NCBI GenBank assembly: GCA_030583785.1
Contig: CP129475.1
Coordinates: 614,535 to 678,534, forward strand
Direction: 5' to 3'
Length of the DNA stretch: 64,000 nucleotides
Origin: Candidatus Dojkabacteria bacterium
GTDB lineage: Bacteria; Patescibacteriota; Dojkabacteria; B142; OLB20
A model generated the notes under the pieces. It did not search any database. It had not been told where the DNA came from and saw only the letters and a list, made by a program, of their open reading frames with translations. The position numbers and the translations under genes were made by a program. Of this stretch, positions 7,204 to 44,014 are shown piece by piece; position 1 is the stretch's first letter, and each line of letters starts with the position of its first letter.

Positions 7204-7333
7204 GCCACAGGCCACAACTCGGGGTAGAACTCGAACTTCGCTATGCTCGTTCTCGCTAACTCCCGGTTTGTCGAACCCATGGGTTCTCTCTCATACAATC
7301 TCCACGCTGCCCACCACTTCGTGATGGTCACCG

Positions 7334-7785
7334 TGGAGATGGCGGGAATCGAACCCGCGTCCAGAAAATCGTGCATCTATGTTCTACAAGCTTAGCAGAT
7401 TTATTTCAGACGATTGGTAATAGAAACCTGCAAAAACCACCAATCGACTGCATGCATCTTCTTCGCTGTGCAAAGCATACAAGTCTGCACAGTCTGCATC
7501 CTGACTGTGTTTCTCCTTTAGTATCCCATCAGGAAAAGATAACTAAAGAAGGCTTCTAACCGCGAGCTAGGCTCGAGCGGTCTTAGGCAGCTAAGTTGAG
7601 CTGGAAGCCGAAGAAAGAGTTAACTTTCTCAGCAACTGCATCAAAAAAGCTTTGTGCTTTGTTTTCGACGATTATTTTTGTCTTCCCAGTGAGTTCTGGG
7701 AGTGTCGGTTTAGTTACAAAGATACCGAACAAAACTTTGGCTTGCCATAAACACACTATATTCTCTGTCAAAACCGGTCATCCCC
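7334..7785 (-). ncRNA. ssrA: tmRNA (ssrA)
   Basis: Minus-strand 5' end GGGGATGACCGGTTTTGACAGAG, with a G3.U wobble in the acceptor stem. 3' tRNA-like end GGACGCGGGTTCGATTCCCGCCATCTCCA (T-arm plus acceptor, CCA not encoded). Internal tag reading frame ...AEKVNSFFGFQLNLAA-TAA ends in the canonical LAA-stop. Confidence 0.8.
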
Positions 7786-7987: not shown

Positions 7988-8977
7988 ATGGGAATAGATA
8001 CTTTATTACAACTTGGTTACCCAAGAAACCTTCTAGGCCGAAGAGTAGATCAAGAGTTTGTCGATCAAATTACGAGATGCGCCAACCCACTCGCAGATAA
8101 GCTACACGAAAAAAATCACTCCACAGACTATCCAGAATGGTTTGGTGGTCTTTGCGATGCAGCACTTTCTTGTTATCTCGCAAAAGATGGTAGTACTCTT
8201 AAACCGACCATAAGCTACGAAACCTCCCAGATACCTGCTGCCTATGTTTTACTAGGTTCATTAGGTAGATTCGGAGATTGGCCAAAACCAAGATTGAAAG
8301 GATATCCAGAATCTGAAACCAGCACAATCGCAGTCGCCACAAAAAAACAGGATATAATTGATGCCTTGATAGGAGCTACCAGACATAGCATTTTTAGCCA
8401 AAGAATTCTTAGAAATCTGCTTCTATACAAAGGTGATTATGACAGAGAAGAAGATATTCAGTCTGCAATTAGTAGGTTTAGAGAAGCTAGGTCAACAAAT
8501 ATCTCAGAAACAGACCAGCATTTGATTACCCCTGCATACATTGCAGGTTGGATAGATGCAGGTAAGATAGGAATTAATATCTGCCCAGAAAGAAACCCTA
8601 GCAACACAGAACAGTTAACTTTTCGCCCGATGATAACATTTGGCTACCGTAATGGGCTTGGAGCTCAGATATCAAGACTTTATGGGGGCAGTCTACGACC
8701 CGATGGAACAGCAATTATCTCTAAAGCAGAATTTGTACTTTATTTTTGCGATGATGTTGCACCACACCTAGTTACACGGCCCGAAGTCGCAGTATTACAT
8801 GCACTCTCTACAGAAAAATTGACTAGAATCGCAAGAGATGAAGGTCAAGTTCACTTGGCTGCAGACGAAACAGTAGGATACGATTGTTACACAGCTTTTT
8901 GTGAACTTACAGGAGCAAAAGCCGCTTCACTCGAAGAGCTAAAACAAAATCTGATTATAAGCGCAGAAGTTTCATAG
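7988..8977 (+). CDS. hypothetical protein
   Basis: 329-aa ORF with coding-like composition and no recognisable motif. Its 3' end overlaps trpS convergently by 23 nt. Confidence 0.45.
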   Translation: MGIDTLLQLGYPRNLLGRRVDQEFVDQITRCANPLADKLHEKNHSTDYPEWFGGLCDAALSCYLAKDGSTLKPTISYETSQIPAAYVLLGSLGRFGDWPKPRLKGYPESETSTIAVATKKQDIIDALIGATRHSIFSQRILRNLLLYKGDYDREEDIQSAISRFREARSTNISETDQHLITPAYIAGWIDAGKIGINICPERNPSNTEQLTFRPMITFGYRNGLGAQISRLYGGSLRPDGTAIISKAEFVLYFCDDVAPHLVTRPEVAVLHALSTEKLTRIARDEGQVHLAADETVGYDCYTAFCELTGAKAASLEELKQNLIISAEVS

Positions 8978-9944
8978 CATCTTTTACCCTATCAATTACA
9001 CCCTCTGCTGTCGCATAAGCCTTCTTTGTTCCTTCGTGCAATATTTCTGTCAGAACTGTCTGATCACCATACTTTTGGCGGCGAGAACTAATTGGCTCCA
9101 TTAACTCTTCTAGGCTTGCCAGTAGCTTTTGCTTGACCTCAACATCTCCAACCCGCCCTTTTATATATCGTTCTTTCAAATCTTCTACCTCAGCTTTATT
9201 TTTATTGAAAATATCGTGGTAAACAAAAACAGGATTCCCTTCAACTTTACCGGGATCAGTTGCCCGCACTCTATTTGGGTCTGTATACATGGACATGACC
9301 TTTTGTTTTAGAGATTCAGAAGATTCGTTGAGATAAATTGCATTGTTAAGGGACTTGCTCATCTTGGCATTGTTGTCTAATCCGACAAGCCTCGACACAG
9401 ATCCCACTTTCGCTTCTGGCTCGACTAGTGTCTGCCCGTATATTCCATTAAACTTACGCACCAGCTGTCTTGCCACTTCAATGTGTGGAAGCTGATCTTC
9501 ACCAACGGGTACCAAATTTGCATCATAAATTGCAATATCTGCGGCCTGACTAACCGGATACATAAAAAATCCAAGAGGTACGCTGTCTTCGAATCCCTTC
9601 TGCTTCATCTCTGTTTTAACTGTAGGATTGTGGCCGAGCTTATTTACGGATATTAAGTTGGCAAGAAAAACAGTGAGCTCTGCAGTTTGAGGAATAGCCG
9701 ACTGCAGAATAAATGTTACTTTTTCTGGATCAAGACCAACGGCAATATTATCTTGCAATACCTGCAAGACATTGTCTCTTACTTTTTCGGGTTTTTCGAA
9801 ATTATCAGTAAGTGCTTGAACATCGGCAATCAAAATGTATGTATCATAATCGTTTTGCAGTTCTACTCTGTTTTGCAACGACCCGACAAAATGCCCTAAA
9901 TGCAAAGGGCCTGTAGGTCTGTCTCCTGTTAGTATTCTTTTCAT
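8955..9944 (-). CDS. trpS: tryptophanyl-tRNA synthetase
   Basis: TGPLHLGH (HIGH motif), KMSKS present, 329 aa. Typical class-I TrpRS. Confidence 0.9.
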   Translation of the reverse strand: MKRILTGDRPTGPLHLGHFVGSLQNRVELQNDYDTYILIADVQALTDNFEKPEKVRDNVLQVLQDNIAVGLDPEKVTFILQSAIPQTAELTVFLANLISVNKLGHNPTVKTEMKQKGFEDSVPLGFFMYPVSQAADIAIYDANLVPVGEDQLPHIEVARQLVRKFNGIYGQTLVEPEAKVGSVSRLVGLDNNAKMSKSLNNAIYLNESSESLKQKVMSMYTDPNRVRATDPGKVEGNPVFVYHDIFNKNKAEVEDLKERYIKGRVGDVEVKQKLLASLEELMEPISSRRQKYGDQTVLTEILHEGTKKAYATAEGVIDRVKDAMKLLRL

Positions 9945-15089: not shown

Positions 15090-15574
15090 AGATGATTATT
15101 ATTGTCTACATAATTAATACACTTTTAGTCTTAACAATTTCTTAACTTGTCCACAATTAGGGATGATTGATTGAATATCTTGTTACAAAACAAAAGAAAA
15201 CAAGACAGAAACAGCTTTTTTCACCACTACCTTTCCTCTACCAATCGATCTCGTTGCCAGACAATAATTTTCGGTTGATTCTTGCACTTGAGCCGACCGA
15301 ACAGATACCGATACCTGCAAGTTCGTACATTAATTCTCTATAAGCATGAAATAGAATTGTCGAGTGGACCCTGTATTAAAAACCCAAAGAAAATACTAAT
15401 CGTAACCACAATTACCTACCCTCCCTCAGCTTACAACAAACTTCTTAACTTCTCATGAATAATTGATTTTTACATTAAATAATTAGAAAGCTAAGTTTGT
15501 TCAACTATTATATTCAATAATTGCTTATCGATCATTTCTTTGTTAGAATTAATCTCAAATCAAATAACAATGCG

Positions 15575-15770
15575 TTGAACCGACCTAGTCATCGGGGAGC
15601 AAAGGAAAGAACATCAGTTTTTCTGACTAGTAGACTCCTTCGGGTAGGCCCGAAATAGCCGCAAGAGATGCCCGAAAAGGCATGGATCAGGGTGGAACCT
15701 CCTTATATATCGAAGGACCCTATCCGACAATCGCAGCTGTAATGCGGTTGGCGGATAGGGTTTTTTGTAT
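15575..15770 (+). promoter_or_regulatory. T-box-like leader riboswitch upstream of valS
   Basis: Conserved T-box-like sequence ATCAGGGTGGAACCTCC (cf. AGGGUGGNACCGCG) at ~15692-15708, directly 5' of an intrinsic terminator. Possible Stem-I elements: GTTGA k-turn-like motif, a GTCA loop (Val codon GUC plus purine), and AGAGA. Confidence 0.5.
15721..15766 (+). terminator. rho-independent terminator / T-box terminator hairpin
   Basis: ccctatccg...cggataggg perfect 9-bp stem followed by tttttt. Confidence 0.65.
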
Positions 15771-15785
15771 CTTATAAACATATAT

Positions 15786-18665
15786 ATGCTAACCAAGGGA
15801 CCATACGAAGCAACAATAACAGAGGAATCAATATTAAATTATTGGCTCGAAAATAAATTTTTTAAACCGGAATATCATCCAGAAAAGGGGCTACAGACCG
15901 AGGCAGAAATGCGTGCCGACCAGAGAGATCCTTTCACTATCGTTAATCCCCCACCGAACGCATATATGCGACCACATATCGGGAATGTTTCCGGATATGC
16001 ATACCAAGATGTTTTACTTCGTTACAACAGATTACTTGGTAAGAAAGTACTGGGACAACCCGGAAAAGACCACGCAGGCATACAAGGCGAGGTGGTAGTA
16101 GAAAAGATATTTCTAGAAAATAAAAAAAAGAGCAAACAAGATCTAGGACGCGAAAAATTCTACAAAGCATCGTATGCGCATTTTCAAAAACTTATGCCCA
16201 TGGTTATGGCCGACGAAAAAAGGATTGGTTTGTCAAGCGACTACGAGCGCAACCTATTTACACTTGACCCAAGAGTCGTAAATACGATTTTGAACACCTT
16301 TGTTTCTCTATATTCAGACGGAATGGTATATAAGGGCGTTCGCATCGTAAATTGGGATCCTGTTGCCAAGACCACCCTTGCAGATATCGATACCGAAAGA
16401 GTCGAAAGGGAAACGGAACTTGTTTATATTAAATACCCGCTAAAGCAAGAAATTGATGGAATAAATCATATTACAGTTGCCACAACTCGAGCAGAGACAA
16501 TGCTGGGAGATACCGCCGTTATTGTTAACCCTAAAGACGAGAGGTACAAAAAACTTATTGGAGCGATAGTGGTGCTTCCACTTGCTAATAGAGAAATCCC
16601 AATCATTACCTCTGAAAGGGTTGAGAGTGAATTTGGAACTGGAGCAGTCAAACTTACTCCGGCACATTCATACGACGATTATGTCATGATGAACGAATGG
16701 AACTCTGTTGCCAAGGAAAACGAAAAGATCGGATATATCAATGTAATTAATAAGCAGGCCAAGATGTACGGCCCAATCCCCGAAAGATACATTGGACTTA
16801 GCACCGAAGAAGCTAGAAGCAAAGTACTTGTTGACCTCGAAGAACAGGGACTCATCGAAAAGAAAGAGGCTCACACACAAAGTGTAATGGTCGGAGAAAG
16901 ATCGAAAGCTGTCATCGAACAGATAATGTCTTCACAGTGGTTCATTGATGTGGAAAGGCTTAAACAGCCGGCAATCGAGGCTGTAAAATCAGGAGAAATC
17001 CAGATCCATCCAAAATACATGACAAAAAAATACTTAACCTGGATGGAAAACCTTCATGACTGGCCAGTCTCAAGGTCTCTATGGTGGGGATACCGAATTC
17101 CTGTTTGGTACAAAGGTGAGCTTAGTGAAGATATTGACGAAAAAGGTCAGGTGATAGAGACAGTTGGAGGAGAGAAAGTCGAAAATATTAACGATGCAGT
17201 CAATAAAGGACTTGCCAAGATTCAACTTGATCCACCGGGAACAACATTTGCAGTTATTCGACATGGAGCGACAGAGCATAATCAGGAGCACAGATTAACA
17301 GGCAGAATCGACACCCCCTTAAGTGAATCAGGAATTAAAGAATGTGAGATTTATGCAAATAATCTGCAAGAATCCTTTGATTTGATAATCTCTTCGCCAC
17401 AAAAAAGGGCTTTTCAAACCGCAGAAATCATTGCTGCTAAACAAAACAGCAAACCAAACATAATTACCGACGAAAGACTTAGAGAAAGAGACTTTGGTAT
17501 CGCCGAGGGCAAAAACTGGGAAGAACTAATTACAGAAAATCCTGAACTGGCAAAAAGCAACTCTCCTCTCTTTCAACCCGAACTTCCTGAGGCAGAAACA
17601 ATTACAGAAGTTGAAAGCCGTGTTGAAGATTGGATCAAAGAAACCGCCGAAAAATATACAGGAAAGAAAATTCTTGTCGTAACACATGCGGGCGTGTACC
17701 GAGTAATTAGAAGACAACTTGGAGGAATGAATGCAGACGAATCCAGAACCGATATTGCCAACCTGCAAATGGAGAGGTATCACATTAAAGAGGAGGGCTG
17801 GATTCAAGATGAAGATGTGTTTGATACCTGGTTTAGTTCTGGACAATGGCCGTATGCCACGCTAAGAGCAAACAACATCAATGACTGCTTCTTTCCATCT
17901 GATGTTATGGAGACAGGACACGATATCCTTGAACTATGGGTAAGTCGAATGATCATGCTCTCGTTATACACAGAAAACAAGATTCCTTTCAAACATGTTT
18001 ATTTACATGGTCTGGTTAAAGCTCCCGACGGGCAAAAGATGAGTAAATCTAAAGGGAATGTCATTGCTCCGGAAGAAATCATTACCAAATACGGAGCTGA
18101 TTCACTAAGACTACTTTATGTAGTTGGGAATCGAGCCGGTTCAAGTTATCCTGTGAGCTACGAAAAACTTGAAGGATACAAAAGATTTCTTAACAAAATC
18201 TGGAATGCAGCGAAATTCGTTCTTTCAAATCTTGAAGATTTAAACATTGATCATCTTGCAAATACCGATATAAAGAATCTTAACCTTGCCGAGACCGATA
18301 GAACTATGCTCGATCATATGAACCTTTTAATCGCAGACACCACGCGTAGATTGGATAACTTTAATCTAGGCATTGCTGCGCAAGAGTTATACGATTCATT
18401 CTGGCATACTTTTGCGGATATCTATTTAGAAGAAGTAAAAATGCGCTTGTATACAAAAGATAAGGACGGCAACCCTATAAATACTTCTGAGCAAGAAAAA
18501 CAAAGCAGATTTGCAGCACAGTGGACTCTGTACAACTGCTTTAGAGAGTATCTAATTCTATTGCACCCATTTATTCCGTTTATAAGCGAACGGATTTGGC
18601 AAGATCTACCGAAAACAGACAAAGAAAGTAAAACAATTATGTATTCTCGCTGGCCCCAGCGTTAG
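15786..18665 (+). CDS. valS: valyl-tRNA synthetase with an inserted histidine-phosphatase-superfamily domain
   Basis: ValRS blocks: PPPNAYMRPHIGN (HIGH-region variant), GKDHAGIQ, VNWDPVAKTTLADIDTE, WPVSRSLWWGYRIPVWY, DTWFSSGQWP, KMSKSKGN. An insert at ~17110-17810 carries the RHG phosphatase signature (IRHGATEHN ... LVVTHAGVYR). The ATG at 15786 was chosen because the longer ORF start overlaps the leader terminator. Confidence 0.9.
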   Translation: MLTKGPYEATITEESILNYWLENKFFKPEYHPEKGLQTEAEMRADQRDPFTIVNPPPNAYMRPHIGNVSGYAYQDVLLRYNRLLGKKVLGQPGKDHAGIQGEVVVEKIFLENKKKSKQDLGREKFYKASYAHFQKLMPMVMADEKRIGLSSDYERNLFTLDPRVVNTILNTFVSLYSDGMVYKGVRIVNWDPVAKTTLADIDTERVERETELVYIKYPLKQEIDGINHITVATTRAETMLGDTAVIVNPKDERYKKLIGAIVVLPLANREIPIITSERVESEFGTGAVKLTPAHSYDDYVMMNEWNSVAKENEKIGYINVINKQAKMYGPIPERYIGLSTEEARSKVLVDLEEQGLIEKKEAHTQSVMVGERSKAVIEQIMSSQWFIDVERLKQPAIEAVKSGEIQIHPKYMTKKYLTWMENLHDWPVSRSLWWGYRIPVWYKGELSEDIDEKGQVIETVGGEKVENINDAVNKGLAKIQLDPPGTTFAVIRHGATEHNQEHRLTGRIDTPLSESGIKECEIYANNLQESFDLIISSPQKRAFQTAEIIAAKQNSKPNIITDERLRERDFGIAEGKNWEELITENPELAKSNSPLFQPELPEAETITEVESRVEDWIKETAEKYTGKKILVVTHAGVYRVIRRQLGGMNADESRTDIANLQMERYHIKEEGWIQDEDVFDTWFSSGQWPYATLRANNINDCFFPSDVMETGHDILELWVSRMIMLSLYTENKIPFKHVYLHGLVKAPDGQKMSKSKGNVIAPEEIITKYGADSLRLLYVVGNRAGSSYPVSYEKLEGYKRFLNKIWNAAKFVLSNLEDLNIDHLANTDIKNLNLAETDRTMLDHMNLLIADTTRRLDNFNLGIAAQELYDSFWHTFADIYLEEVKMRLYTKDKDGNPINTSEQEKQSRFAAQWTLYNCFREYLILLHPFIPFISERIWQDLPKTDKESKTIMYSRWPQR

Positions 18666-19839: not shown

Positions 19840-20661
19840 TTATTTAATTAAAAACAGAATTTCGTTCCAGATCAATTGAATATTAGCAGGCTGATTCTTC
19901 TTTTGTACAGAACCTCGCGGCAGAAGAAAAGGAGAGTCAGTTTCTAGAACAATTCCTTGCGAGTACAAATCTTTAGGAGTCTTGATATCTGAGTCTTTAA
20001 GATATTTAGTTAAGCCTTTGCGCAAATCCTTTGCAGAAGAATAGGTTATTATTCCGTTGATCCCCACAAGGTGTCCGCGCTCTCTAATTTCTAGTAGTTG
20101 TCCATAATCCCCAGTAAAGCTATGCATAACCACTTTTGCTTTGGGGTGTTTATCTAAGAGTTGTAGACATTCGTGTAACGAATCTCTGCTATGTACAGTG
20201 AGAGGCAAATCATGCTTGATCGCAAGCATGATTTGCCCTTCAAACAACTCCCTTTGAATTCCGACACATTCATCGTATTCCTGCTTAGAAAAATTCTGTT
20301 TACGAGGCCAGTAGAAATCAAGTCCACATTCACCGATCATTATCGGATCGTAGTCGGTTACTATCTTATCAAGCTCTGTTAATAATTCAGAAAGTTTGGT
20401 TTTAATGTCAGTAACATAATTACTCCCCCCTTTTATTGCCAATTCCGGGTGATAACCACAAGTATAAAAAACGCCTTCTATTCCTGCGTCTTTGTCTGCA
20501 ATTGCATCGTTACCTCTGACTGCCACGCTTATTGCCGCATGCACACCTGCCGCTTTTGCATCAAGCATTATTTGGCCTATATCTGCATCTTGAGAATAGT
20601 TCAGATGACAGTGAGAATCGAAGAGATAGTCACCGTTTAGAAGTGATGTAAATGAGGTCAT
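19840..20661 (-). CDS. tatD: TatD-family metal-dependent hydrolase/DNase
   Basis: FDSHCHL N-terminal His pair and IGECGLDFYW (GEIGLD motif). Confidence 0.85.
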   Translation of the reverse strand: MTSFTSLLNGDYLFDSHCHLNYSQDADIGQIMLDAKAAGVHAAISVAVRGNDAIADKDAGIEGVFYTCGYHPELAIKGGSNYVTDIKTKLSELLTELDKIVTDYDPIMIGECGLDFYWPRKQNFSKQEYDECVGIQRELFEGQIMLAIKHDLPLTVHSRDSLHECLQLLDKHPKAKVVMHSFTGDYGQLLEIRERGHLVGINGIITYSSAKDLRKGLTKYLKDSDIKTPKDLYSQGIVLETDSPFLLPRGSVQKKNQPANIQLIWNEILFLIK

Positions 20662-22391
20662 ACCTTTTCTGAAACAACCTGATCTCGATCAAGCTTGGTG
20701 AATAATATTTCTGGAGCAGAACTCAACGCAAAAGAATTTCTTACCTGTGGCTGCCAGAGATCTAGATCGACACTAACCCCTGGGAGATTGATCCCAAGCA
20801 TAGCCATTAATTTACTAGAAGAATTAGGCAGAATCGGTGCAATCAAAACAGACAGATTTGCCAGCAGATTTAGTAGATTAAGCATAATTTCTTCAGCCTC
20901 TTCGGGCTTTTCTTTTATCACTTTCCAGATTGCCTGAGTTTCAAAGTACTGATTCCCAAACTTTGCCAAAGCCATTATTTCGTTAACTGCGGGCGATATT
21001 TCTGCCATATCAAGCAGAGACGAGGTCTTGGCAAAGCATGTTGAAACCTTTGCCTGCACTTTTGTATCAATTTTGTAATCATCAATTGTTAAATGCGAAT
21101 CATATCTTGCGGCAAAGAATGTTAGAGAGCGATTTACTAAATTGCCAAAATTAGCGACTAATTCGTTGTTTATTGCATCCGTAAATCCTTCCCAGGTGAA
21201 GTTTGCTTCTTTGTGTTCGGGAAGATTTGCCGATATATAATAACGAACTGCATCTGTTCCAAATTTGTCGGCCATTTGTGCAGAATCTATCGTCCAACCG
21301 CGGCTTTTACTGAATTTTTTGCCTTCGTAGTTCATAAATTTGTTTACCACAACATGAGTTGGGAGCTTGTAGCCTCTTTTGCTGCCAATAAGTTGAGCAG
21401 GCCACATCAGCGTGTGAAAAACAAGATTATCTTGTCCCATAAAATAGTAATGTTCAGAATCTTGATTTAGCCACCAATTTTGCCAGTCAGTATCCTGACT
21501 TTCACCCTTAGTGAAAATAATGTCCTCGTTCTCGGATTCAAGCACCGCCCATTCTTGAGGTGCAGACAGGTAACCAATTACAGCTTCAAACCAAACATAT
21601 ATCTTCTTTCCGTCATAATTTTCAAGCTGTTTGGATTTATCAAGTTTTAAGATTTCTTCGACCGGAAGATCTATTGCCCAGTCCATGTCTCGGGTTATTG
21701 CCCTTTTCTTCATACCCTCTTTGAGCCATCCGTTCGTTTCTTTCCAAACCCAGTTTCTCCAGATGTCTTTTTTATCTTCGACATACTGCTTTAGTTCGTT
21801 ATCGAGTTTAGAAAAATCAAGGAAGTAATGTTCTGTGTCTTTAAGTTCAACAGGTGAACCACTTAATTTGCTTACAGGATCGATAAGTTCTCCATCTTCT
21901 ATCCAGCGTCCGCAGGATTCACACTGATCGCTTCTTTGTTGACCTGCCTTACAGTATGGACAGGTACCTTCTACATATCTATCTGGCAGGAATTGATTAT
22001 CTTGAGTTGCGAAATATTGCTTCATTGTTCCTTTGACAATGTAATCATTCTTTAATAGATCAAGGAACAATTCTTGGACCACCCGTTTATGGTTTTCTGT
22101 TTGCGTTGAAGTGTAGAGATTGTAGCTCAATCGATACTTCTTGAAAAGCTGAATATCGTTCTGATGGTATTGTTTAACAATTTCTGCAGGCTGAACTCCT
22201 TTTTTGTCGGCTTCGACTGTAATCGGTGTACCGTGAGTATCTGAACCCGAGACCATAAGCACATCGTTACCTCGGAGTCGTTGATATCTGGCAACAATGT
22301 CTGCCGGAATAAGGTAACCGGCAAGATGACCGAGGTGAATGTCTCCGTTAACATAGGGCCAAGCAACGCCTACAAGAATTTTTTTATGCAT
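20658..22391 (-). CDS. metG: methionyl-tRNA synthetase (short form)
   Basis: PYVNGDIHLGHLAGY (HIGH), zinc knuckles CPYC...CESCG, KFSKSRG (KMSKS). 577 aa, with no C-terminal tRNA-binding extension. Confidence 0.9.
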   Translation of the reverse strand: MHKKILVGVAWPYVNGDIHLGHLAGYLIPADIVARYQRLRGNDVLMVSGSDTHGTPITVEADKKGVQPAEIVKQYHQNDIQLFKKYRLSYNLYTSTQTENHKRVVQELFLDLLKNDYIVKGTMKQYFATQDNQFLPDRYVEGTCPYCKAGQQRSDQCESCGRWIEDGELIDPVSKLSGSPVELKDTEHYFLDFSKLDNELKQYVEDKKDIWRNWVWKETNGWLKEGMKKRAITRDMDWAIDLPVEEILKLDKSKQLENYDGKKIYVWFEAVIGYLSAPQEWAVLESENEDIIFTKGESQDTDWQNWWLNQDSEHYYFMGQDNLVFHTLMWPAQLIGSKRGYKLPTHVVVNKFMNYEGKKFSKSRGWTIDSAQMADKFGTDAVRYYISANLPEHKEANFTWEGFTDAINNELVANFGNLVNRSLTFFAARYDSHLTIDDYKIDTKVQAKVSTCFAKTSSLLDMAEISPAVNEIMALAKFGNQYFETQAIWKVIKEKPEEAEEIMLNLLNLLANLSVLIAPILPNSSSKLMAMLGINLPGVSVDLDLWQPQVRNSFALSSAPEILFTKLDRDQVVSEKV

Positions 22392-28029: not shown

Positions 28030-28121
<92 letters not shown>

Positions 28122-28241: not shown

Positions 28242-29057
28242 ATGAAAAAGCCCCTTCTCCTTAGATTGTTTGTTTTTCTGTCTGTGATCGGAACCATAAC
28301 TGTAAATGTTCTGGCAAACGCCTTGCCTATAGCAGGTAGAACGACAGCAGAAGTTTCCGATTATTTTCGGGTATTTTTTGTCCCAGCAGGATATGTATTT
28401 GCAATCTGGGGACTAATTTACCTGGCATTGATCTCCTATTCAGTCTTTCAACTGAGAAAATCCACATACAAAAACGAGCTGTATAACAAGATAGCTCCTT
28501 TTGTAATTGTGGGATCAATTGCCAATGCTGTCTGGGTACTACTTTGGCACAACCTTCAGATCGAACTAACGCTAATTGCAATGCTTACCTTACTAATGAG
28601 CCTGATTGCTATTTACTTGTTAATTGATAAACACTCAAAGAAAGATAATAGTCTCGCATACAACCTATTTGTAAAAGGTACTTTTTCCCTTTACTTAGGA
28701 TGGATCAGTGTCGCCACCATTGCTAATGTGACAAATATTCTATTCCTTCAGCTTTATATGTTGCCGGGTACGATGGCCGAAATTATTCCATCGCTAAGCT
28801 CAGAAAGGTTGTTATTTGGGTTAGCTAATGAATTATGGGCAGCTATTATGATTGTTATCGCTGGACTACTGGCAAGCTTATTTATCTTAAGGCATAAAGA
28901 TTATGTTTTTGCTTCAGTTATCACTTGGGCTTTATTCGGTATCTACATGAAGTTTCAAGAAACAAATCAAATAGCATTTTCTGTCGTGCTGGCGTTTATT
29001 ATCATGTTGCTGGCAATTCTTCTACCAAGAAAAGCTTTATTAAAGAAAACTAAATGA
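28242..29057 (+). CDS. multi-pass membrane protein, possibly TspO/MBR (CrtK)-like
   Basis: 271 aa, Trp/Tyr-rich helices (FFVPAGYVFAIWGLIYLAL; LYLGWISVATIANV). First gene of the crt-type operon. Confidence 0.3.
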   Translation: MKKPLLLRLFVFLSVIGTITVNVLANALPIAGRTTAEVSDYFRVFFVPAGYVFAIWGLIYLALISYSVFQLRKSTYKNELYNKIAPFVIVGSIANAVWVLLWHNLQIELTLIAMLTLLMSLIAIYLLIDKHSKKDNSLAYNLFVKGTFSLYLGWISVATIANVTNILFLQLYMLPGTMAEIIPSLSSERLLFGLANELWAAIMIVIAGLLASLFILRHKDYVFASVITWALFGIYMKFQETNQIAFSVVLAFIIMLLAILLPRKALLKKTK

Positions 29058-30802
29058 ACAGCGAATTAATTCTTCTTGGACAAGGACTATTTTCATCTGC
29101 TGTCATTGTCTGCTTGTTTATGACCTTTGTTTATCTAATCGGACTAATCAAAAAAGATAACGGAATAGTTGATATTGCTTGGGGAATAGGATTCTCTCTC
29201 ATTGCTGTTTACACATATCTAAATTTTGCAGGAAGTGCCTCTAAGCAACTCTTAATAACCTTACTAGTACTTATCTGGGGTAGCAGGCTCGCTCTGTATA
29301 TTGCGCTTCGCAACAAGAACAAAGGCGAAGACAAACGCTATGCAGATTTTCGCAAAAGATGGAAGAAATACTGGCCACTTCAAAGCTACCTTAAGATTTA
29401 CATGCTACAAGGGTTGCTTATGCTCTTAATATCCTTACCGATAATCATCGTTAACACACTGGGCTCGCCCCAGCTATTCCTTATCAACATCATTGGTATT
29501 CTCGTCTGGGAATTCGGATTCATATTCGAAACTATCGCAGATATGCAGATGTTAAACTTTAAAAGTAACAAAGCCAATAAGGGTAAGATCCTCAAAACCG
29601 GCCTATGGAGATACAGCAGACATCCAAACTATTTTGGAGAAGCTGTGGCATGGTGGGGGATTTTTCTTATCACGATTGGCTCTCCGATATGGTGGATTGC
29701 TTTAATCAGCCCGGTTCTAATCACTTATCTTTTGCTTAAGGTTTCCGGGGTAACACTTCTAGAAAAGAACTTGTCGAAAAGAAAAGGCTATCAGGAATAC
29801 ATCAACGAAACCTCTGCCTTTCTTCCGCTTCCACCAAAAACAGCTGACAACCGCTACACGGATATAGTTCTTCCACTTTCAATTGTTTTTGCGGTTATGT
29901 TTTGCATTGTTCCATTCCTTACTCCACTCCCATACATAAACACTCTAAGTAACGACGAACTTGATACTCCAGGTGCCACCTTTATTCAAATCGAAGGAAT
30001 TAAAACTCTATACCTGACAGCTGGTCCCGTTGACGGAGAGACGGTTATATTAATTCATGGATTTGGAGGGAACGCGTATGACTGGCGCAAAACAATCCCT
30101 TATCTTGCCGATCTTGGCTACAGAGTTTATGCACTTGATTTAAAAGGTTTTGGATTAGCAGACAAAAAACTGGAGGAGAACTACTCACATTCTGCACAAG
30201 CATCTTTCGTTGTTGCCTTTATGGACAAGCTAGGAATTGAGAAAGCTTCTATAGTTGGACATAGCATGGGTGGCAATGTTTCTGCACATGCTGTACAGAG
30301 GTATCCGGAGCGCTTCACCAAACTCATACTTGTAAGTGCGGCAGTGGTTGAAAACTCTTTCCCAATTGGAATTAATACTCTACTTCAGAATGAACCCTTT
30401 GTTCGCTGGGGCAGAATACTTCTACGAACATTCGTAAATGAAGATACGGCTTCCAATCTACTTGAAGATGCGTTGTATATTGACACAGCTATAGAAAAGG
30501 CGGATTTGAACCTACATACACAAATGCTTAGAACGGCAAATTGGGAACTTGCTCTAATAGGAATTATTCGCGACTCAGGCAACAATGCCTTGCCAAAAGG
30601 TTTGGACACAATTACAATCGACACAGGCATTATCTGGGGAGAAAAAGATTCGTGGGTACCCCCAAGTTCAGGGGAATCACTTAACGAGCGTATACCAAAT
30701 TCAACATATTCAGTTATTCCTGATGCCGGTCATTTACCGATGTTAGAGAAAAGCGACGAATTCAATAAATTGTTAAGCGAAAAACTAGAGAATGAAAACT
30801 AA
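29054..30802 (+). CDS. fusion protein: N-terminal DUF1295/ICMT/steroid-5-alpha-reductase-like membrane domain plus C-terminal alpha/beta-hydrolase
   Basis: GLWRYSRHPNYFGEAVAWWGIF (RHPNYFGE signature of the DUF1295/ICMT/PEMT superfamily). C-terminal ILIHGFGGNAYDWRK and GHSMGG nucleophile elbow. Start overlaps the upstream stop. Confidence 0.65.
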   Translation: MNSELILLGQGLFSSAVIVCLFMTFVYLIGLIKKDNGIVDIAWGIGFSLIAVYTYLNFAGSASKQLLITLLVLIWGSRLALYIALRNKNKGEDKRYADFRKRWKKYWPLQSYLKIYMLQGLLMLLISLPIIIVNTLGSPQLFLINIIGILVWEFGFIFETIADMQMLNFKSNKANKGKILKTGLWRYSRHPNYFGEAVAWWGIFLITIGSPIWWIALISPVLITYLLLKVSGVTLLEKNLSKRKGYQEYINETSAFLPLPPKTADNRYTDIVLPLSIVFAVMFCIVPFLTPLPYINTLSNDELDTPGATFIQIEGIKTLYLTAGPVDGETVILIHGFGGNAYDWRKTIPYLADLGYRVYALDLKGFGLADKKLEENYSHSAQASFVVAFMDKLGIEKASIVGHSMGGNVSAHAVQRYPERFTKLILVSAAVVENSFPIGINTLLQNEPFVRWGRILLRTFVNEDTASNLLEDALYIDTAIEKADLNLHTQMLRTANWELALIGIIRDSGNNALPKGLDTITIDTGIIWGEKDSWVPPSSGESLNERIPNSTYSVIPDAGHLPMLEKSDEFNKLLSEKLENEN

Positions 30803-32273
30803 ACATATAGTAGTAATTGGTGCGGGTTATGGTGGTCTTTCTGCCGCTGCTTTATTGGCACACAAAGGCTACAAGGTCACTGTTCTCGAAAAGCACAATC
30901 AACCGGGTGGCAGGGCCAGACTCCTAGAAGATAAGGGTTTCAAATTTGATATCGGCCCCTCCTGGTATATGATGCCAGAAATGTTTGATCGGCTATTTAG
31001 CCTAACCAACAAGAACAGAGAAGATTACTACAAAATTAAAAGGTTAGATCCGTCGTATCGTATATTCTTTAACCAGAACGACTCTATAGATATTCCCAGC
31101 AATGCAGATCAGGTGGGAGATCTGTTTGAAACCCTAGAAAAGGGTTCTAAACAAGAATTAGAAAGATATCTGGCCGATGCTAAGTACAAATACGACATGG
31201 CAACAAAAGAATTTCTTTACAAAAGATTCTCCTCGATTTTCTCGTTGTTAGATAGAAATCTGGTTCTGGATCCGGCCGGCTACGATATTCTTAAGAATTT
31301 TCACAAACATACAAAAAAATACTTCAAAAACGATCGAATTATTAAAATTATTGAGTGGATGATTACCTTTCTTGGAAGCTCTCCATACAATGCACCCGCG
31401 ATCTATTCGCTCATAGCACATGCCGAATTTAATCTAGGAATTTGGTACCCAGAAGGGGGCTTAATTAGCGTTTCTAATGGACTTGCCAAACTGGCAGAAG
31501 ACTGTGGTGCTGTAATTAAACTCAACTCAGAAGTACTCAAAATTAACTGCAAAGATAGCAAAGCTGTTTCGGTTACTACAAATAAAGAAACAATTCCTGC
31601 CGATGCAATAATTGCCAACTCAGAATACTCCTTTACAGAAATGTACCTTCTCGATGAACAACACCGAACATACGACAAAAATTACTGGGAAAAGAAGACT
31701 TACTCGCCGTCTTCCCTTCTCTTTTATGTTGGTCTAAATAAAAAACTAAAAACAGTGATTCATCACAATTTATATCTAGACGAAGAATCTGACTGGGAAG
31801 GACATTTTGACTCGCTTTATAAAAACAAACGCTGGCCAGAGAACCCTATGTTCTATCTAAGTGTCACATCTTGTAGCGATAAAACCGTTGCGCCAAAAGA
31901 GAATGAGAACCTTGTCTTTCTAATCCCCATTGCACCAGGAATCGAAGATACTCCAGAGGTTCGCGAGCACTACTTCAACAACCTGATTGATCGTTTTGAA
32001 AAAATTAATGGAGAGAGTATTCGCGACCACATCGTAGTTAAACACAGCTACGCCATTAACGACTTCGTTCGAGACTATGGGGCTTTTAAGGGCAACGCTT
32101 TTGGTATGGCACATACATTGTTCCAAACCGCTAACTTTAGACCAGATATTCGCAGTAAAAAGGTAAAAAATCTTTTTTATACAGGTTGCATGACACAACC
32201 GGGAATCGGTACACCACTTTCTATTGTATCTGCAGAAGTAGCTGTTAAAGAATTGAATAAAAATATTTCGTAA
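30792..32273 (+). CDS. crtI: phytoene desaturase-family FAD oxidoreductase
   Basis: IVVIGAGYGGLSAAALLAHKGYKVTVLEKHNQPGGRA dinucleotide-binding fold. 493 aa, CrtI-family length and composition. Confidence 0.8.
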   Translation: MKTKHIVVIGAGYGGLSAAALLAHKGYKVTVLEKHNQPGGRARLLEDKGFKFDIGPSWYMMPEMFDRLFSLTNKNREDYYKIKRLDPSYRIFFNQNDSIDIPSNADQVGDLFETLEKGSKQELERYLADAKYKYDMATKEFLYKRFSSIFSLLDRNLVLDPAGYDILKNFHKHTKKYFKNDRIIKIIEWMITFLGSSPYNAPAIYSLIAHAEFNLGIWYPEGGLISVSNGLAKLAEDCGAVIKLNSEVLKINCKDSKAVSVTTNKETIPADAIIANSEYSFTEMYLLDEQHRTYDKNYWEKKTYSPSSLLFYVGLNKKLKTVIHHNLYLDEESDWEGHFDSLYKNKRWPENPMFYLSVTSCSDKTVAPKENENLVFLIPIAPGIEDTPEVREHYFNNLIDRFEKINGESIRDHIVVKHSYAINDFVRDYGAFKGNAFGMAHTLFQTANFRPDIRSKKVKNLFYTGCMTQPGIGTPLSIVSAEVAVKELNKNIS

Positions 32274-32303: not shown

Positions 32304-33122
32304 ATGGGCTCACAAGAAATCTTTAAACAAGGAAGCAGGACTTTCTACTATAGTAGCAAGTTCTTTCCTGCCGACAAATTAGAAGATGTAACAAAACTCT
32401 ATGCTTTTGTTAGGGTAGCTGACGATTATGTAGATAGCTTTCCACAACAAATCGATGAATTCAATAAATTCTACCAAGAATACAAATCTGCGTTAGCATC
32501 TAAAGAAATCTCCAATAATCAAATTATTGCCGACTTCATTCAATTAGCGAATAAGTATAACTTTGAAGATAGCTGGACAGAGAGCTATTTTGAATCAATG
32601 GCCGCCGACCTGAAAACCATTCGTTGTAATAATCTTGAAGAAACAAAAAAATATATCTTCGGATCAGCTGTTGTTGTGGGCTATATGATGTCGAGGATTT
32701 TAGAAATTGACGACAGACATCAACCACAGGCAGCCTTTTTAGCAGAGGCGTTTCAGTATATAAACTTCATTCGCGACATAGACGAAGACAACAAACGAAA
32801 CAGAAATTACTTCCCTCAAGATGAACTTAAAAAACATGGTTTAAAAGATCTTACATTTGATACTATCAGTAACAACAAAGATGGTTTTGTGAGCTTTATA
32901 AACGAACAGCTCGATAGATATTTCTCTTGGCAGAATCAGGCAATAGCAGCCTTTAAGTACATTCCAAGAAGGTACAGAATTCCTTTGCAGACAGCGGTAG
33001 AAATGTATTCCTGGACAGGAAGAACAATCAGAAAAAATCCTATGGTTATCTATGAACGCAAGGTGAAGCCAACAAAAACTCGAATCATACTTACAGGTTT
33101 AAAAAGAATCATTAGTCTATGA
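32304..33122 (+). CDS. crtB: phytoene/squalene synthase-family enzyme
   Basis: YAFVRVADDYVD (first Asp-rich motif of phytoene synthase) and a second region FIRDIDED. Confidence 0.8.
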   Translation: MGSQEIFKQGSRTFYYSSKFFPADKLEDVTKLYAFVRVADDYVDSFPQQIDEFNKFYQEYKSALASKEISNNQIIADFIQLANKYNFEDSWTESYFESMAADLKTIRCNNLEETKKYIFGSAVVVGYMMSRILEIDDRHQPQAAFLAEAFQYINFIRDIDEDNKRNRNYFPQDELKKHGLKDLTFDTISNNKDGFVSFINEQLDRYFSWQNQAIAAFKYIPRRYRIPLQTAVEMYSWTGRTIRKNPMVIYERKVKPTKTRIILTGLKRIISL

Positions 33123-33799
33123 ACTACTCTTATCTTCTCTTAAACCTAATCATTCTAATCGGACCTCTGCTTTTATCTTTTGAGAAGCGCGTTAGATACA
33201 TATCGAAAATAAAGCATGTTTTGATTTCAATTTTTCTAGTCAGTATTCCTTTCATTCTGTGGGATCAATACGCTACCCTCAACGGACATTGGAGCTTCAG
33301 CAAAGAACATACTACAGGAATCAATATTGGCATGCTTCCTATCGAAGAAGTCATGTTTTTCTTGACTGTGCCATTTAGCTGCCTTTTCGTCTACGAGGTA
33401 ATTAATTATTTCTTTAAAGACAAAAAAACAAAGGTGTCCGCATATGTATTTGCTTTTGTAGGGGCCTTACTAAGCCTAATTGCATTTACTAATCCGGATA
33501 AGGGTTATACATTAATAGTAAGCACACTTGGTTCGTCTTTGTTCTTTGCCTTGGCATTTATTAGGCCCGTTTTGGTTATGAAAAGAAACTATCTAATATT
33601 TCTGGCAGTGACACTTGTTCTATTTCTGGTTTTCAATTCAATCCTAACAGGGATTCCCATAGTCAGCTATGGAGCCGATGAAATCCTTGGAATACGAATT
33701 GGAACAATTCCCATTGAGGATTTTGTATATAATTCAGTTATGCTGACTTTATATCTGCTGGTTTACAATTGGTCAAAAATGTTTTTCAAAAAAGATTGA
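33119..33799 (+). CDS. lycopene cyclase-domain protein (two tandem CrtYc/d-type repeats)
   Basis: MLPIEEVMFFLTVPF and GTIPIEDFVY, two copies of the PxE(E/D) lycopene-cyclase-domain motif in a 226-aa, 6-7 TM protein. Confidence 0.55.
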   Translation: MNYSYLLLNLIILIGPLLLSFEKRVRYISKIKHVLISIFLVSIPFILWDQYATLNGHWSFSKEHTTGINIGMLPIEEVMFFLTVPFSCLFVYEVINYFFKDKKTKVSAYVFAFVGALLSLIAFTNPDKGYTLIVSTLGSSLFFALAFIRPVLVMKRNYLIFLAVTLVLFLVFNSILTGIPIVSYGADEILGIRIGTIPIEDFVYNSVMLTLYLLVYNWSKMFFKKD

Positions 33800-42368: not shown

Positions 42369-42399
42369 ATATGCAATAATTGACTAAGCAGCTTTAGTC

Positions 42400-42640
42400 T
42401 TGCTATTATTCGCTTAAGTTCTTCTCGACAGAAAAGGCTTAAATAAGTCCCAGAAAAATGTACGCGAACCATTTTGATGAGAAAGCCTGTGAAGAGCATT
42501 TGTCGAAGCTAGCTTCGAGCAGTTCCAACAATTAAATAGTCAATAAAGTATAATATAAGAGGTGGCACCACTCCTCGTTTTTGGAGTCCTTATGTTTGGC
42601 TATTAGCGTAGTCAGGCATAAGGATTTTTTTATTTTTTAT
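42400..42640 (+). promoter_or_regulatory. T-box-like leader riboswitch upstream of serS with terminator
   Basis: TAAGAGGTGGCACCACTCC (42556-42574) resembles the T-box consensus AGGGUGGNACC. The UGGC would pair with an NCCA end having discriminator G, as in the tRNA-Ser in this window. Followed by terminator tccttatg...cataagga plus T-run (42587-42640). Confidence 0.45.
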
Positions 42641-42649
42641 ATCAAAACT

Positions 42650-44014
42650 ATGGTTGATGTACAGTTTGTAAGAGAAAACCCAGAGCGAATGAGGGCTATC
42701 ATCAATAGCGGAAGAGGCAACCCCGAAAAGGCAAATATCGATCTTTGGCTTAAGCTAGATAAAGAGAGAACACTACTAGTTCAACAACGAGATGCTTTAA
42801 ATACCAAAAAGAATGAGCTAGCAAATTTAGGCAAATCTGGAGCAACAAGCGATGATATCAGAAAAAAAGGACAAGAGCTCAAACAAGAGTCTCAAAAAAT
42901 CGAAGAAAGCCTAACCAGGATCGAGAAAGAATGGCAAGAGATACTTGCGTGGATGCCAAATATTCCACATCAAGATATGCCCGAAGGCAAAGGAGAAGAT
43001 GACAATCTAATAATCAGAGCTTGGGATCCTGCAAATGGTTATGTAGAAAACTTCAACGAAGTGCGTGTAAAAGATTCAGTTAATCCTTTTCCTGCAAGAT
43101 CAATGCATTGGGACAAAGAAGACCTTAAAGCTAAACATCATCTGGAGATTGGAGAAGCACTTGAGCTTATAGATAACAATCAGGGAGCAAAAGTATCCGG
43201 ATCAAGATTTACATACATCGTTGGAGACCTAGCTTTAATGCAGTATGCAATCCAACAATTACTCTTTTCGAAATTGCTGTCTATGGGATTTAAACAAATA
43301 ATCCCTCCCCTGCTGGTTAGAGAAGTTGCATTATTTGGAACAAGTCATTTTCCCGAACAGGTGGATCAGGTCTATAAAATTGACAACACCTATCTTGAAG
43401 ACAGCAGCAAGCCTCTCTACCTTGTTGGCTCTTCAGAGCCATCTAACTTCTCGTACTTCATTGATAAAACTCTAAGCGCAGAAACCCTTCCTATAAAGCT
43501 TTTCGCTTACACTTCTTGTTTTAGGTCAGAGGCGGGATCGTGGGGACGAGATACCAAAGGCATAAAAAGGCTTCATCAGTTCGATAAAATTGAAATGAAT
43601 GTTGTCTGTAACCCCGAAGAATCAGACAAAATATTTGACGAACTTCTGTCAGTTAATGAATGGTTGCTACAAGAGCTTCGACTCCCTTATCATCTGGTTC
43701 TTAAATGCACAGGAGACGCAGGTTACATGGCCAGTTCTAAGCAAATTGATCCAGAAGTCTGGCTTCCTGGTCAAAAGGAGTTTATGGAGGTAATGACAGA
43801 CACCAATACAACCGATTACCAGGCAAGGAGACTAAACATTAAATTCAAGGATGAAACTGGAGCAAAAAAATATGTGCACACAGTTAACGATACTGGAGTT
43901 GCCATGGGAAGAATGTTAATTGCAATCATCGACAATTATCAGCAAGCTGATGGAACGATCAAGGTCCCAGAAGCACTAAGGAAGTTTATGGGCAAAGACT
44001 ATATCGGAAAGTAA
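42650..44014 (+). CDS. serS: seryl-tRNA synthetase
   Basis: N-terminal coiled-coil arm. Class II motifs (motif 2 FRSEAGSWGRDTKGIKRLHQFDKIE, motif 3 GVAMGRMLIAI). Start set to MVDVQFVREN because the longer ORF reads through the leader terminator. Confidence 0.9.
   Translation: MVDVQFVRENPERMRAIINSGRGNPEKANIDLWLKLDKERTLLVQQRDALNTKKNELANLGKSGATSDDIRKKGQELKQESQKIEESLTRIEKEWQEILAWMPNIPHQDMPEGKGEDDNLIIRAWDPANGYVENFNEVRVKDSVNPFPARSMHWDKEDLKAKHHLEIGEALELIDNNQGAKVSGSRFTYIVGDLALMQYAIQQLLFSKLLSMGFKQIIPPLLVREVALFGTSHFPEQVDQVYKIDNTYLEDSSKPLYLVGSSEPSNFSYFIDKTLSAETLPIKLFAYTSCFRSEAGSWGRDTKGIKRLHQFDKIEMNVVCNPEESDKIFDELLSVNEWLLQELRLPYHLVLKCTGDAGYMASSKQIDPEVWLPGQKEFMEVMTDTNTTDYQARRLNIKFKDETGAKKYVHTVNDTGVAMGRMLIAIIDNYQQADGTIKVPEALRKFMGKDYIGK

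Follow-up and report, generated by a model that had tools for sequence, protein, structure and literature searches.

Does a patescibacterium with a reduced genome keep watch on the charging of its transfer RNAs (tRNAs), and if so, by what device? The question is raised by the DNA lying 5' of valS, the gene for valyl-tRNA synthetase (ValRS), in Candidatus Dojkabacteria bacterium, a member of the Patescibacteria or candidate phyla radiation (CPR). The stretch analysed, hereafter the window, comprises 64,000 nucleotides (nt) of the forward strand of contig CP129475.1 (assembly GCA_030583785.1, positions 614,535 to 678,534), and a preliminary description made from its letters had proposed that a T-box riboswitch leader with an intrinsic terminator precedes valS. 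Comparison with related leaders upholds that proposal, and we put at roughly 0.87 the probability that this is a real tRNA-Val-sensing T-box riboswitch controlling valS by transcription attenuation. The elements of the leader together span positions 15541-15770 (Table 1), and the gene behind it is readily identified, its product matching the Pfam families tRNA-synt_1 (2e-104), Anticodon_1 (5e-26) and His_Phos_1 (1.7e-43) and being 99% identical in a protein search to ValRS of candidate division WS6 bacterium OLB21.

What carries the reading is comparison. Seventeen distinct valS leaders from Dojkabacteria, the window's included, were brought together by ValRS-based scans of genome and metagenome collections, by protein search and by contig look-ups (individual loci are cited by L numbers), and all of them are built to one plan. 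An extended -10 box (TGnTAnAAT) precedes a short hairpin, with GUC-N at the end of its terminal loop; then come an AAGWG string, Stem III where it is present, and a UGGNACC bulge. A helix with a purine-rich internal loop is found in 15 of the 17, as is a 20-24-nt element resembling CGGGUAAGCCCGUUACAGCU. When a covariance model was built from the 3' half of 11 distant relatives, excluding both the window and its near-copy L007, and run over the whole 64 kb on both strands with filters off, its top match was the valS leader (15627-15722, 47.9 bits, E ~1.4e-10); the runner-up was a leader 5' of serS (16.1 bits, E 0.018), and all other matches had E>2. A model made from a helix-only 'collapsed' alignment (R1) was abandoned because its artificial short loops could not absorb real insertions, so that the real leader was misaligned at 9.5 bits, and was replaced by a model of natural sequences (R2).

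The pairing itself has been kept by compensatory change. In a helix-only alignment of 13 leaders, whose segments were copied from real sequence and verified for order and spacing by regular expression, 97.4% of cells are standard pairs and 19 of 21 pairs show compensatory changes; hand-picking of the segments inflates these values, although each segment is anchored to a conserved landmark. None of 500 shuffles reached the observed pairing, and sliding a partner strand by one column reduced it to about 50%. RNAalifold, given unedited homologues, recovered the antiterminator de novo as a 5-bp A1, a 7-nt bulge and a 4-bp A2, with compensatory changes in eight of the nine pairs. Full-length natural leaders aligned with MAFFT and passed to RNAalifold yielded the antiterminator and part of helix IIA only, Stem I and Stem II being lost because their lengths vary from 0 to ~200 nt; Stem I was handled by single-sequence folding instead. 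The nearest homologue, L007, is 79% identical to the window leader, and where the two differ in Stem I, Stem II, IIB and Stem III the changes compensate one another; with every helix intact, this points to continuing selection on structure. Comparative evidence that the element is a T-box leader is decisive, and that from the single sequence modest: 9 bp or more of A1 plus A2 pairing 3' of the bulge can be had in 7% of shuffled sequences.

At the 3' end of the leader two structures compete for the same nucleotides. The preliminary description placed a T-box core directly 5' of a perfect terminator with six T residues. Both are found: the core is ATCAGGGTGGAACCTCC, and the arms CCCTATCCG (15718-15726) and CGGATAGGG (15752-15760) run into T6 (15761-15766), within a hairpin that is longer than was described. 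In the 64 kb the exact core AGGGTGGNACC is found a single time, and AGGGUGGAACCUCC agrees with the conserved T-box sequence AGGGUGGNACCGCG at 11 of 13 specified positions. A second match to the motif, AAGGTGGCACC at 29972 (-), was set aside as chance, lying inside a 582-aa open reading frame (ORF) on the other strand and having no terminator. Once the 3' arm of the terminator is omitted from the fold, a textbook antiterminator with its 7-nt bulge forms (dG -13.3), as the preliminary description had expected of the alternative fold. The terminator's 5' arm (15711-27) includes the 3' strands of A2 and A1 (15713-15725), and the two structures are mutually exclusive. A1 and A2 are 100% paired and covarying across the 13 aligned leaders, and the antiterminator makes up the heart of the 47.9-bit match to the leave-out model. 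The terminator is nearly identical in L007, and in 11 of 14 homologues the A2'/A1' strand likewise serves as the 5' arm of a hairpin with a U tail.

Table 1. Features of the valS and serS leaders in the window (window coordinates)
Feature	Position	Strand	Sequence or structure	Basis
valS leader: extended -10 promoter	15541..15549	+	TGTTAGAAT; hexamer TAGAAT at 15544-15549	read from sequence
Predicted transcription start	near 15556	+		-10 box
K-turn, 5' strand	15572..15578	+	C-stem GC, 3-nt bulge GUU, then GA	sequence motif
Stem I	15580..15595	+	CCGA (15580-83) / UCGG (15592-95), 4 bp, 16-nt hairpin	fold, covariation
Apical Specifier loop	15584-91	+	CCUAGUCA, 8 nt; specifier GUC 15588-15590, then A15591	
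K-turn, 3' strand	15596..15600	+	G, GA, GC (GGAGC)	sequence motif
Stem II	15602..15640	+	base helix AAGGA (15602-06) / UCCUU (15636-40)	
Stem II S-turn (loop E)	3' strand 15629-35	+	AAGAAC 5' strand, AGUAGAC 3' strand	motif match
Stem II distal hairpin	within 15602..15640	+	UCAG/CUGA	
Stem IIA/B pseudoknot	15641..15660	+	CGGGUAGGCCCGAAAUAGCC, 20 nt; IIA CGG/CCG, IIB GGC/GCC	
Purine string	15663-67	+	AAGAG (RRRxG motif)	fold, conservation
Stem III	15668-83	+	AUGCC-CGAAAA-GGCAU, 5 bp	folds
T-box core	15686-15702	+	ATCAGGGTGGAACCTCC	window sequence
Antiterminator (discriminator core)	15684..15725	+		fold without terminator 3' arm
Helix A1	15684-92 / 15718-25	+	(GGAU-C-)AGGG / CCCU(AUCC), 4(+4) bp	fold
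T-box bulge	15693-99	+	UGGAACC (UGGN+ACC), 7 nt between A1 and A2, unpaired; N = A15696	
Helix A2	15700-04 / 15713-17	+	UCCUU / AAGGA, 5 bp	fold
Intrinsic terminator	15711..15766	+	~27-bp interrupted hairpin, then U6	dG -36.6 kcal/mol
valS (regulated gene)	15786..18665	+	valyl-tRNA synthetase with inserted histidine-phosphatase domain; ATG at 15786, 20 nt past the terminator U-tract	Pfam
serS leader (second short-Stem-I T-box leader)	42419-42631 (region 42380-42650)	+		
serS promoter		+	TTGACT / TGCTATTAT	
serS apical-loop hairpin	42419-42433	+	specifier UCG 42425-27	
serS Stem II	42436-42487	+		
serS Stem III	42503-42518	+		
serS T-box bulge	42563-69	+	UGGCACC	
serS terminator	42587-42631	+		
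serS start codon	42650	+	ATG	

If the discriminator half is of the familiar kind, the decoding half is not what a search for familiar T-boxes would look for. The K-turn-like GTTGA element noted earlier is indeed there (15574-15578), and with its partner strand it gives GC[GUU]GA / G-GA-GC, which agrees with the K-turn consensus as far as sequence can tell; the K-turn of L007 is arranged alike (GC[UUU]GA...C GA GC), and several homologues have a weaker version, GC[AUU]UGA / AAGC. Stem I shows covariation in 4/4 pairs and is 100% paired in the helix-only alignment. The loop with GTCA, read in the preliminary description as a valine codon followed by a purine, is confirmed as the Specifier: GUC lies in a hairpin loop in the minimum-energy fold of the window, with a probability of being unpaired of 0.97, and 12 of 14 leaders, folded singly and without constraint, likewise place it in a terminal hairpin loop. 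It is invariant (17/17), followed by A in most leaders, as in the window, by C in five and by G in one. Since GUC encodes valine and the downstream gene encodes ValRS, specifier and gene agree, and the third specifier base, C, obeys the 'C-rule' tied to the Stem II S-turn (PMC7778990). A whole-leader minimum-energy fold that buries GUC by pairing CUAGUCA with UGACUAG was rejected, this pairing being conserved in no homologue. A protein-binding tRNA mimic of the kind found in the Escherichia coli thrS leader was likewise discarded: the conserved loop holds the Val codon, not the Val anticodon.

Could this nevertheless be a canonical class I T-box with a long Stem I, as in Bacillus valS, that Rfam misses through divergence? 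The core, an F-box-like element, Stem III and the terminator are all of the canonical sort, and the valS leaders of Bacillus and Veillonella, which are canonical, pass RF00230 at 131 and 109 bits. The RF00230 search that had been suggested as a check gave no match in the window at the gathering score (93 bits), and the leave-out model, as described above, does match there; with lax filters seven of eight homologous leaders match RF00230 at 35-59 bits (E 3e-10 to 3e-4; L007 48.6 bits), below that threshold, in alignments that delete most of the model's Stem I. The model fails on the window leader because Stem I has 4 bp and carries the codon in its apical loop, not in a long Stem I. Only 17 nt (15579-15595) separate the K-turn strands, so that there is no room for an elbow-binding distal platform, and the promoter leaves nothing further 5' to be transcribed, lying ~20 nt upstream. 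This promoter, TGTTAGAAT, aligns with TGCTACAAT of L007, and a TGnTAnAAT motif stands 8-35 nt 5' of Stem I in every homologous leader; to judge from the -10 box, transcription of the valS leader would start near 15556. Together with the position of GUC in a terminal loop, in the window as in the 12 of 14 homologues, these features make a canonical class I leader hardly credible. The AGAGA motif of the preliminary description also counts against it: the motif is present (15664-15668) but is not the AG bulge of Stem I, lying 3' of the pseudoknot and belonging to the RRRxG string of purines that precedes Stem III.

Between Stem I and the antiterminator lie Stem II, the IIA/B pseudoknot, the purine string and Stem III. 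The base of Stem II shows compensatory changes in 5/5 pairs with 98.5% of cells paired in the helix-only alignment, and the S-turn fits the GAA / AGUA of the Stem II consensus in the RF00230 alignment. Within the pseudoknot IIA is 100% paired, covaries in L163 and L165 and is partly found de novo by RNAalifold; IIB is 85% paired, with wholly different sequences in L165 (GAUC/GAUC), L166 (CUAAC/GUUAG) and L170 (AGCU/AGCU). AAGWG is kept at the position of the purine string in the homologues, several of which have no Stem III at all. The motif itself is defined as RRRxG-Stem III-AA (PMC7583486).

T-boxes with an ultrashort Stem I were reportedly described in 2015 by Sherwood and colleagues, for actinobacterial ileS genes. 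This ultrashort or class III architecture, as it has been described for actinobacterial ileS leaders (PMC7583486; PMC10482949), is what the window leader most resembles; the class names are those of PMC10482949, and the ileS leaders concerned are those of Nocardia farcinica and Mycobacterium tuberculosis (structures 6UFM / 6UFG, as cited in PMC7583486). We set the crystallised N. farcinica ileS decoding domain (T99; Supplementary Table 2 of PMC10651847) against window positions 15571-15664, and the two correspond element by element. K-turn, Stem I and Specifier loop read GGC[GAC]GA-U-CCGG-CCAUCA-CCGG-G-GA-GCC in N. farcinica and GC[GUU]GA-A-CCGA-CCUAGUCA-UCGG-G-GA-GC in the window; the S-turn strands are AAGAAC / AGUAGAA and AAGAAC / AGUAGAC; and the pseudoknots are CGGGUGAGCCCCGUCACAGCU and CGGGUAGGCCCGAAAUAGCC. 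The 3' strand of the window K-turn is identical to the GGAGC of N. farcinica. In both, a 4-bp Stem I presents the codon followed by A in its apical loop (CCAUCA and CCUAGUCA), no elbow platform is present, and Stem III and a UGGNACC bulge between A1 and A2 follow. This likeness is argued from the correspondence of elements and not from a similarity score, because by score, with a plain identity of 65% over 89 nt, the leader barely outranks every other site in the window; at 64.5 against 63.5 for an unrelated site, pairwise similarity to N. farcinica was rejected as a discriminator.

There are also differences from the ileS leaders. There the amino acid is isoleucine (AUC) and the gene ileS, and here they are valine (GUC) and valS, with serS besides; the apical loop has 8 nt in the window and 7-11 nt in the homologues, compared with 5-6 nt in class III (PMC10482949); the expression platform there is a sequestrator of the Shine-Dalgarno sequence and here an intrinsic terminator; and the hosts are Actinobacteria there and Dojkabacteria here. 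With class I (RF00230; B. subtilis (Bacillus subtilis) tyrS, Bacillus and Veillonella valS) the leader shares the choice between antiterminator and terminator, the T-box bulge, the S-turn, IIA/B, RRRxG-Stem III (though not its AA flank), a specifier matching the regulated aminoacyl-tRNA synthetase gene and the C-rule, but it has neither the long Stem I with internal Specifier loop and AG bulge nor the distal interdigitated T-loop platform. With the class II glycine T-box (B. subtilis glyQS) it shares transcriptional control and the same discriminator domain. The K-turn of glyQS has the window's form, GC[GAU]GA...C-GA-GC. Yet glyQS has kept a long Stem I and is without Stem II and IIA/B, and the window leader is the reverse. 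From its sequence, then, the valS leader reads as a CPR leader in which a class III, short-Stem-I decoding module is coupled to an intrinsic terminator.

That combination is atypical, as class III members are described in reviews as translational (PMC7583486, PMC10482949). Might the 3' hairpin be no terminator but a sequestrator of the ribosome-binding region, as in the actinobacterial ileS leaders? The decoding domain belongs to a type whose described examples are all translational T-boxes (PMC7583486, PMC10482949); a convincing U-tailed terminator is not seen in L002, L165 and L083, and two homologues carry large insertions in helix A2, a trait that a T-box review associates with translational T-boxes. 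These insertions measure 50-100 nt (L002, 2895-2965; L096, 3877-3985), and that of L002 contains an internal U-tailed hairpin. In the window, however, the hairpin has a G+C-rich base, is followed by U6 and ends 20 nt before the ATG; on inspection it contains neither a Shine-Dalgarno-like or other purine-rich ribosome-binding sequence nor the start codon, and 11 of 14 homologues have a hairpin followed by a U-run. Moreover, in L007 and L167 the leader lies one or two genes from valS and so cannot act on initiation of its translation. Translational control of the window gene is therefore very improbable; transcription attenuation is the best reading because of the U6, the lack of a ribosome-binding sequence within the hairpin, the 20-nt gap and the operon position of those two leaders. 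The homologues without a clear terminator (L002, L165, L083) may work differently.

Operon position has a further consequence. The leader stands one or two genes 5' of valS, or directly abuts it, in L007, L167 and L083. In WS6 OLB20 (L007:1499-1720) it precedes a three-gene unit of a 281-aa ORF, a NUDIX hydrolase and valS, and in L167 (1400-1660) a 183-aa ORF plus valS. Since these leaders precede other ORFs of the valS operon, the riboswitch would also control genes that encode no synthetase.

On the attenuation reading the leader would work as follows. Transcription would begin just past the extended -10 box, at ~15556, and the nascent RNA would fold into the short-Stem-I decoding module, the K-turn orienting the 4-bp Stem I with its apical GUC beside the S-turn of Stem II and the IIA/B pseudoknot securing both. 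The anticodon GAC of tRNA-Val would pair with GUC, and the groove between Stem I and Stem II would clamp the pairing, no elbow platform taking part. If the tRNA were uncharged, its 3' CCA would pair with the UGG of the bulge and stabilise the A1/A2 antiterminator, allowing read-through into valS; if it were charged, or if no tRNA were bound, the far more stable terminator (15711-15766 with U6) would form and transcription would stop ~20 nt before the start codon. We infer tRNA binding, the response to charging and termination in vivo from the presence, conservation and covariation of these elements and their homology to T-box leaders, which are computational observations.

Several observations weigh against this account. 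RF00230, run with lax filters on 15400-15850, found no match even at E<=10; as the positive controls score and the homologues match, we do not take the miss as a refutation. The F-box position is divergent, with CCGAAAUAG in place of CCGUUACAG, and Stem III is flanked on its 3' side by GG where the consensus has AA. The pair closing A2 (U15700-A15717) is not the G.U that has been described as a steric sensor of the aminoacyl group (PMC7583486); U-A is also found in L007, whereas of the other homologues nine have G-C at this position and three A-U, the G.U being confined to L096, L162 and L165. Transcriptional T-boxes, according to a T-box review, normally need an elbow platform for fast capture of tRNA, and here the platform is absent. 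Finally there is the base N of UGGN. Of the 17 leaders 13 have U here, L007 among them; L003 and L164 have C, and A is confined to L161 and the window (15696).

This last point deserves some care. Bacterial tRNA-Val normally carries A73. An A at N would predict U73 and mismatch the usual base, as would the N of four leaders in all (A or C) among the 17, and the nearest homologue has U. The window copy may therefore respond weakly. The preliminary description had raised the same mismatch as a caveat and had called the effector uncertain; the caveat is valid, the doubt about the effector less so, for with GUC invariant in 17 leaders and U at N in 13 there would seem to be little doubt that the effector is tRNA-Val. 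No tRNA-Val gene is present in the window or in 18 Dojkabacteria loci.

Taken together, could such departures mean that the leader is a decaying relic, constitutively 'off-leaky', a fixed attenuator that no longer senses tRNA charging? The A at N, where L007 and 13 of 17 leaders have U, the U-A pair closing A2 and the off-consensus F-box and Stem III flank would fit, and the element is evidently dispensable in the lineage, since no leader was found 5' of valS in the upstream regions of three close ValRS relatives (L081, L082, L095). On the other hand, all helices are intact and, compared with L007, have changed by compensatory substitution (Stem I, Stem II, IIB and Stem III); L161 has come to N = A independently, two leaders otherwise intact have N = C, and the U-A pair is shared with L007, which has U at N; three base pairs to CCA could also still form. 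We leave a small chance to this explanation and retain a tRNA-responsive attenuator as our reading of the leader.

The three loci without a leader imply that the element is patchily distributed within Dojkabacteria. Their ValRS proteins are the closest to the catalytic core of the window protein but are without the phosphatase insertion, which in the window occupies aa 490-672 (17253-17801, +; His_Phos_1, 1.7e-43). Insertions in ValRS of other Dojkabacteria relatives are different or additional (HAD hydrolase, PF06821 serine hydrolase, GNAT acetyltransferase), and the proteins reach <=1477 aa.

Two leaders go further in reduction. In L004 (100-300) and L083 (5560-5830) a Stem I with GUC in its apical loop is present, but an unstructured linker of 28-40 nt replaces Stem II and IIA/B; L004 retains a strong terminator, whereas L083 has none and adjoins the start codon. 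Lacking the long Stem I as well as Stem II and IIA/B, they match neither class II nor class III, and appear from their sequences to be in effect minimal T-boxes without both known contacts to the tRNA body. According to a T-box review, a truncated Stem I has hardly any affinity for tRNA when Stem II is missing. We advance, tentatively and at somewhat less than even odds, a broader proposal: that the Dojkabacteria of the CPR hold a lineage of transcription-terminating T-boxes that dispense with contact to the tRNA elbow and rely on the Stem I/Stem II clamp on the anticodon, of which the translational ileS leaders of Actinobacteria were hitherto the only known example, that the pairing at N has been relaxed, and that L004 and L083, by also dropping Stem II and the pseudoknot, may have arrived at a minimal riboswitch of codon loop plus discriminator.

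T-box riboswitches are a model of RNA-RNA recognition and a proposed antibiotic target, and such a family would bear on how they are thought to work. Current reviews associate transcriptional control with a long Stem I and an elbow platform for quick capture, and the translational control of Actinobacteria, on which no time limit is set, with an ultrashort Stem I. A conserved family in which the ultrashort decoding module is coupled to an intrinsic terminator, and in which valine and serine take the place of isoleucine, would be a natural test case for this kinetic argument. If it is functional, the need of transcriptional T-boxes for an elbow platform would not be general, nor would the need of a truncated Stem I for Stem II in order to bind tRNA. 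No report came to light in a full-text literature search that paired T-box with Patescibacteria, candidate phyla radiation or Saccharibacteria, though an earlier mention of transcriptional short-Stem-I T-boxes may exist. Standard searches (Rfam and derived databases such as TBDB) miss T-boxes of Patescibacteria: the leaders fall below the RF00230 threshold, and the short-Stem-I model of TBDB was applied only in Actinobacteria and to sequences that RF00230 had found (PMC7778990), so that such leaders are probably absent from current catalogues.

The preliminary description had pointed to a second leader, 5' of serS, as strengthening the call, and it does. The serS leader has the same architecture as that of valS, with a UCG specifier. 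Its apical loop reads UCUC-N-AC, giving UCG, UCA and UCU in three genomes (the window, L171 and L172), that is, UCN followed by A, and N of the bulge is C in all three, matching G73 of the tRNA-Ser gene in the window (28030-28121). Stem II covaries and no IIA/B pseudoknot is obvious. A palindromic hairpin at 42503-42518 was considered as the place of the specifier (AGC) and rejected, for comparison with the two other serS leaders puts it at the position of Stem III. The window holds four synthetase genes, and only valS and serS have such a leader, with no T-box-like leader found at the genes for TrpRS (8955-9944, -) or MetRS (20658-22391, -). A patescibacterium with a reduced genome would thus keep watch on tRNA charging for two synthetase genes at the least.

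Elsewhere the window contains a carotenoid-type gene set, in a CPR genome (30792-33799, +), made up of a CrtI-like flavin amine oxidase (30792-32273), a phytoene/squalene synthase (32304-33122) and a lycopene cyclase domain protein (33119-33799), and preceded by a DUF1295 / alpha-beta-hydrolase fusion (29054-30802). A transfer-messenger RNA (tmRNA) gene at 7331-7785 (-), which scores 121 bits with Rfam, is of unusual length and carries large insertions when compared with the model; its predicted tag has 28 residues, VENKAQSFFDAVAEKVNSFFGFQLNLAA.

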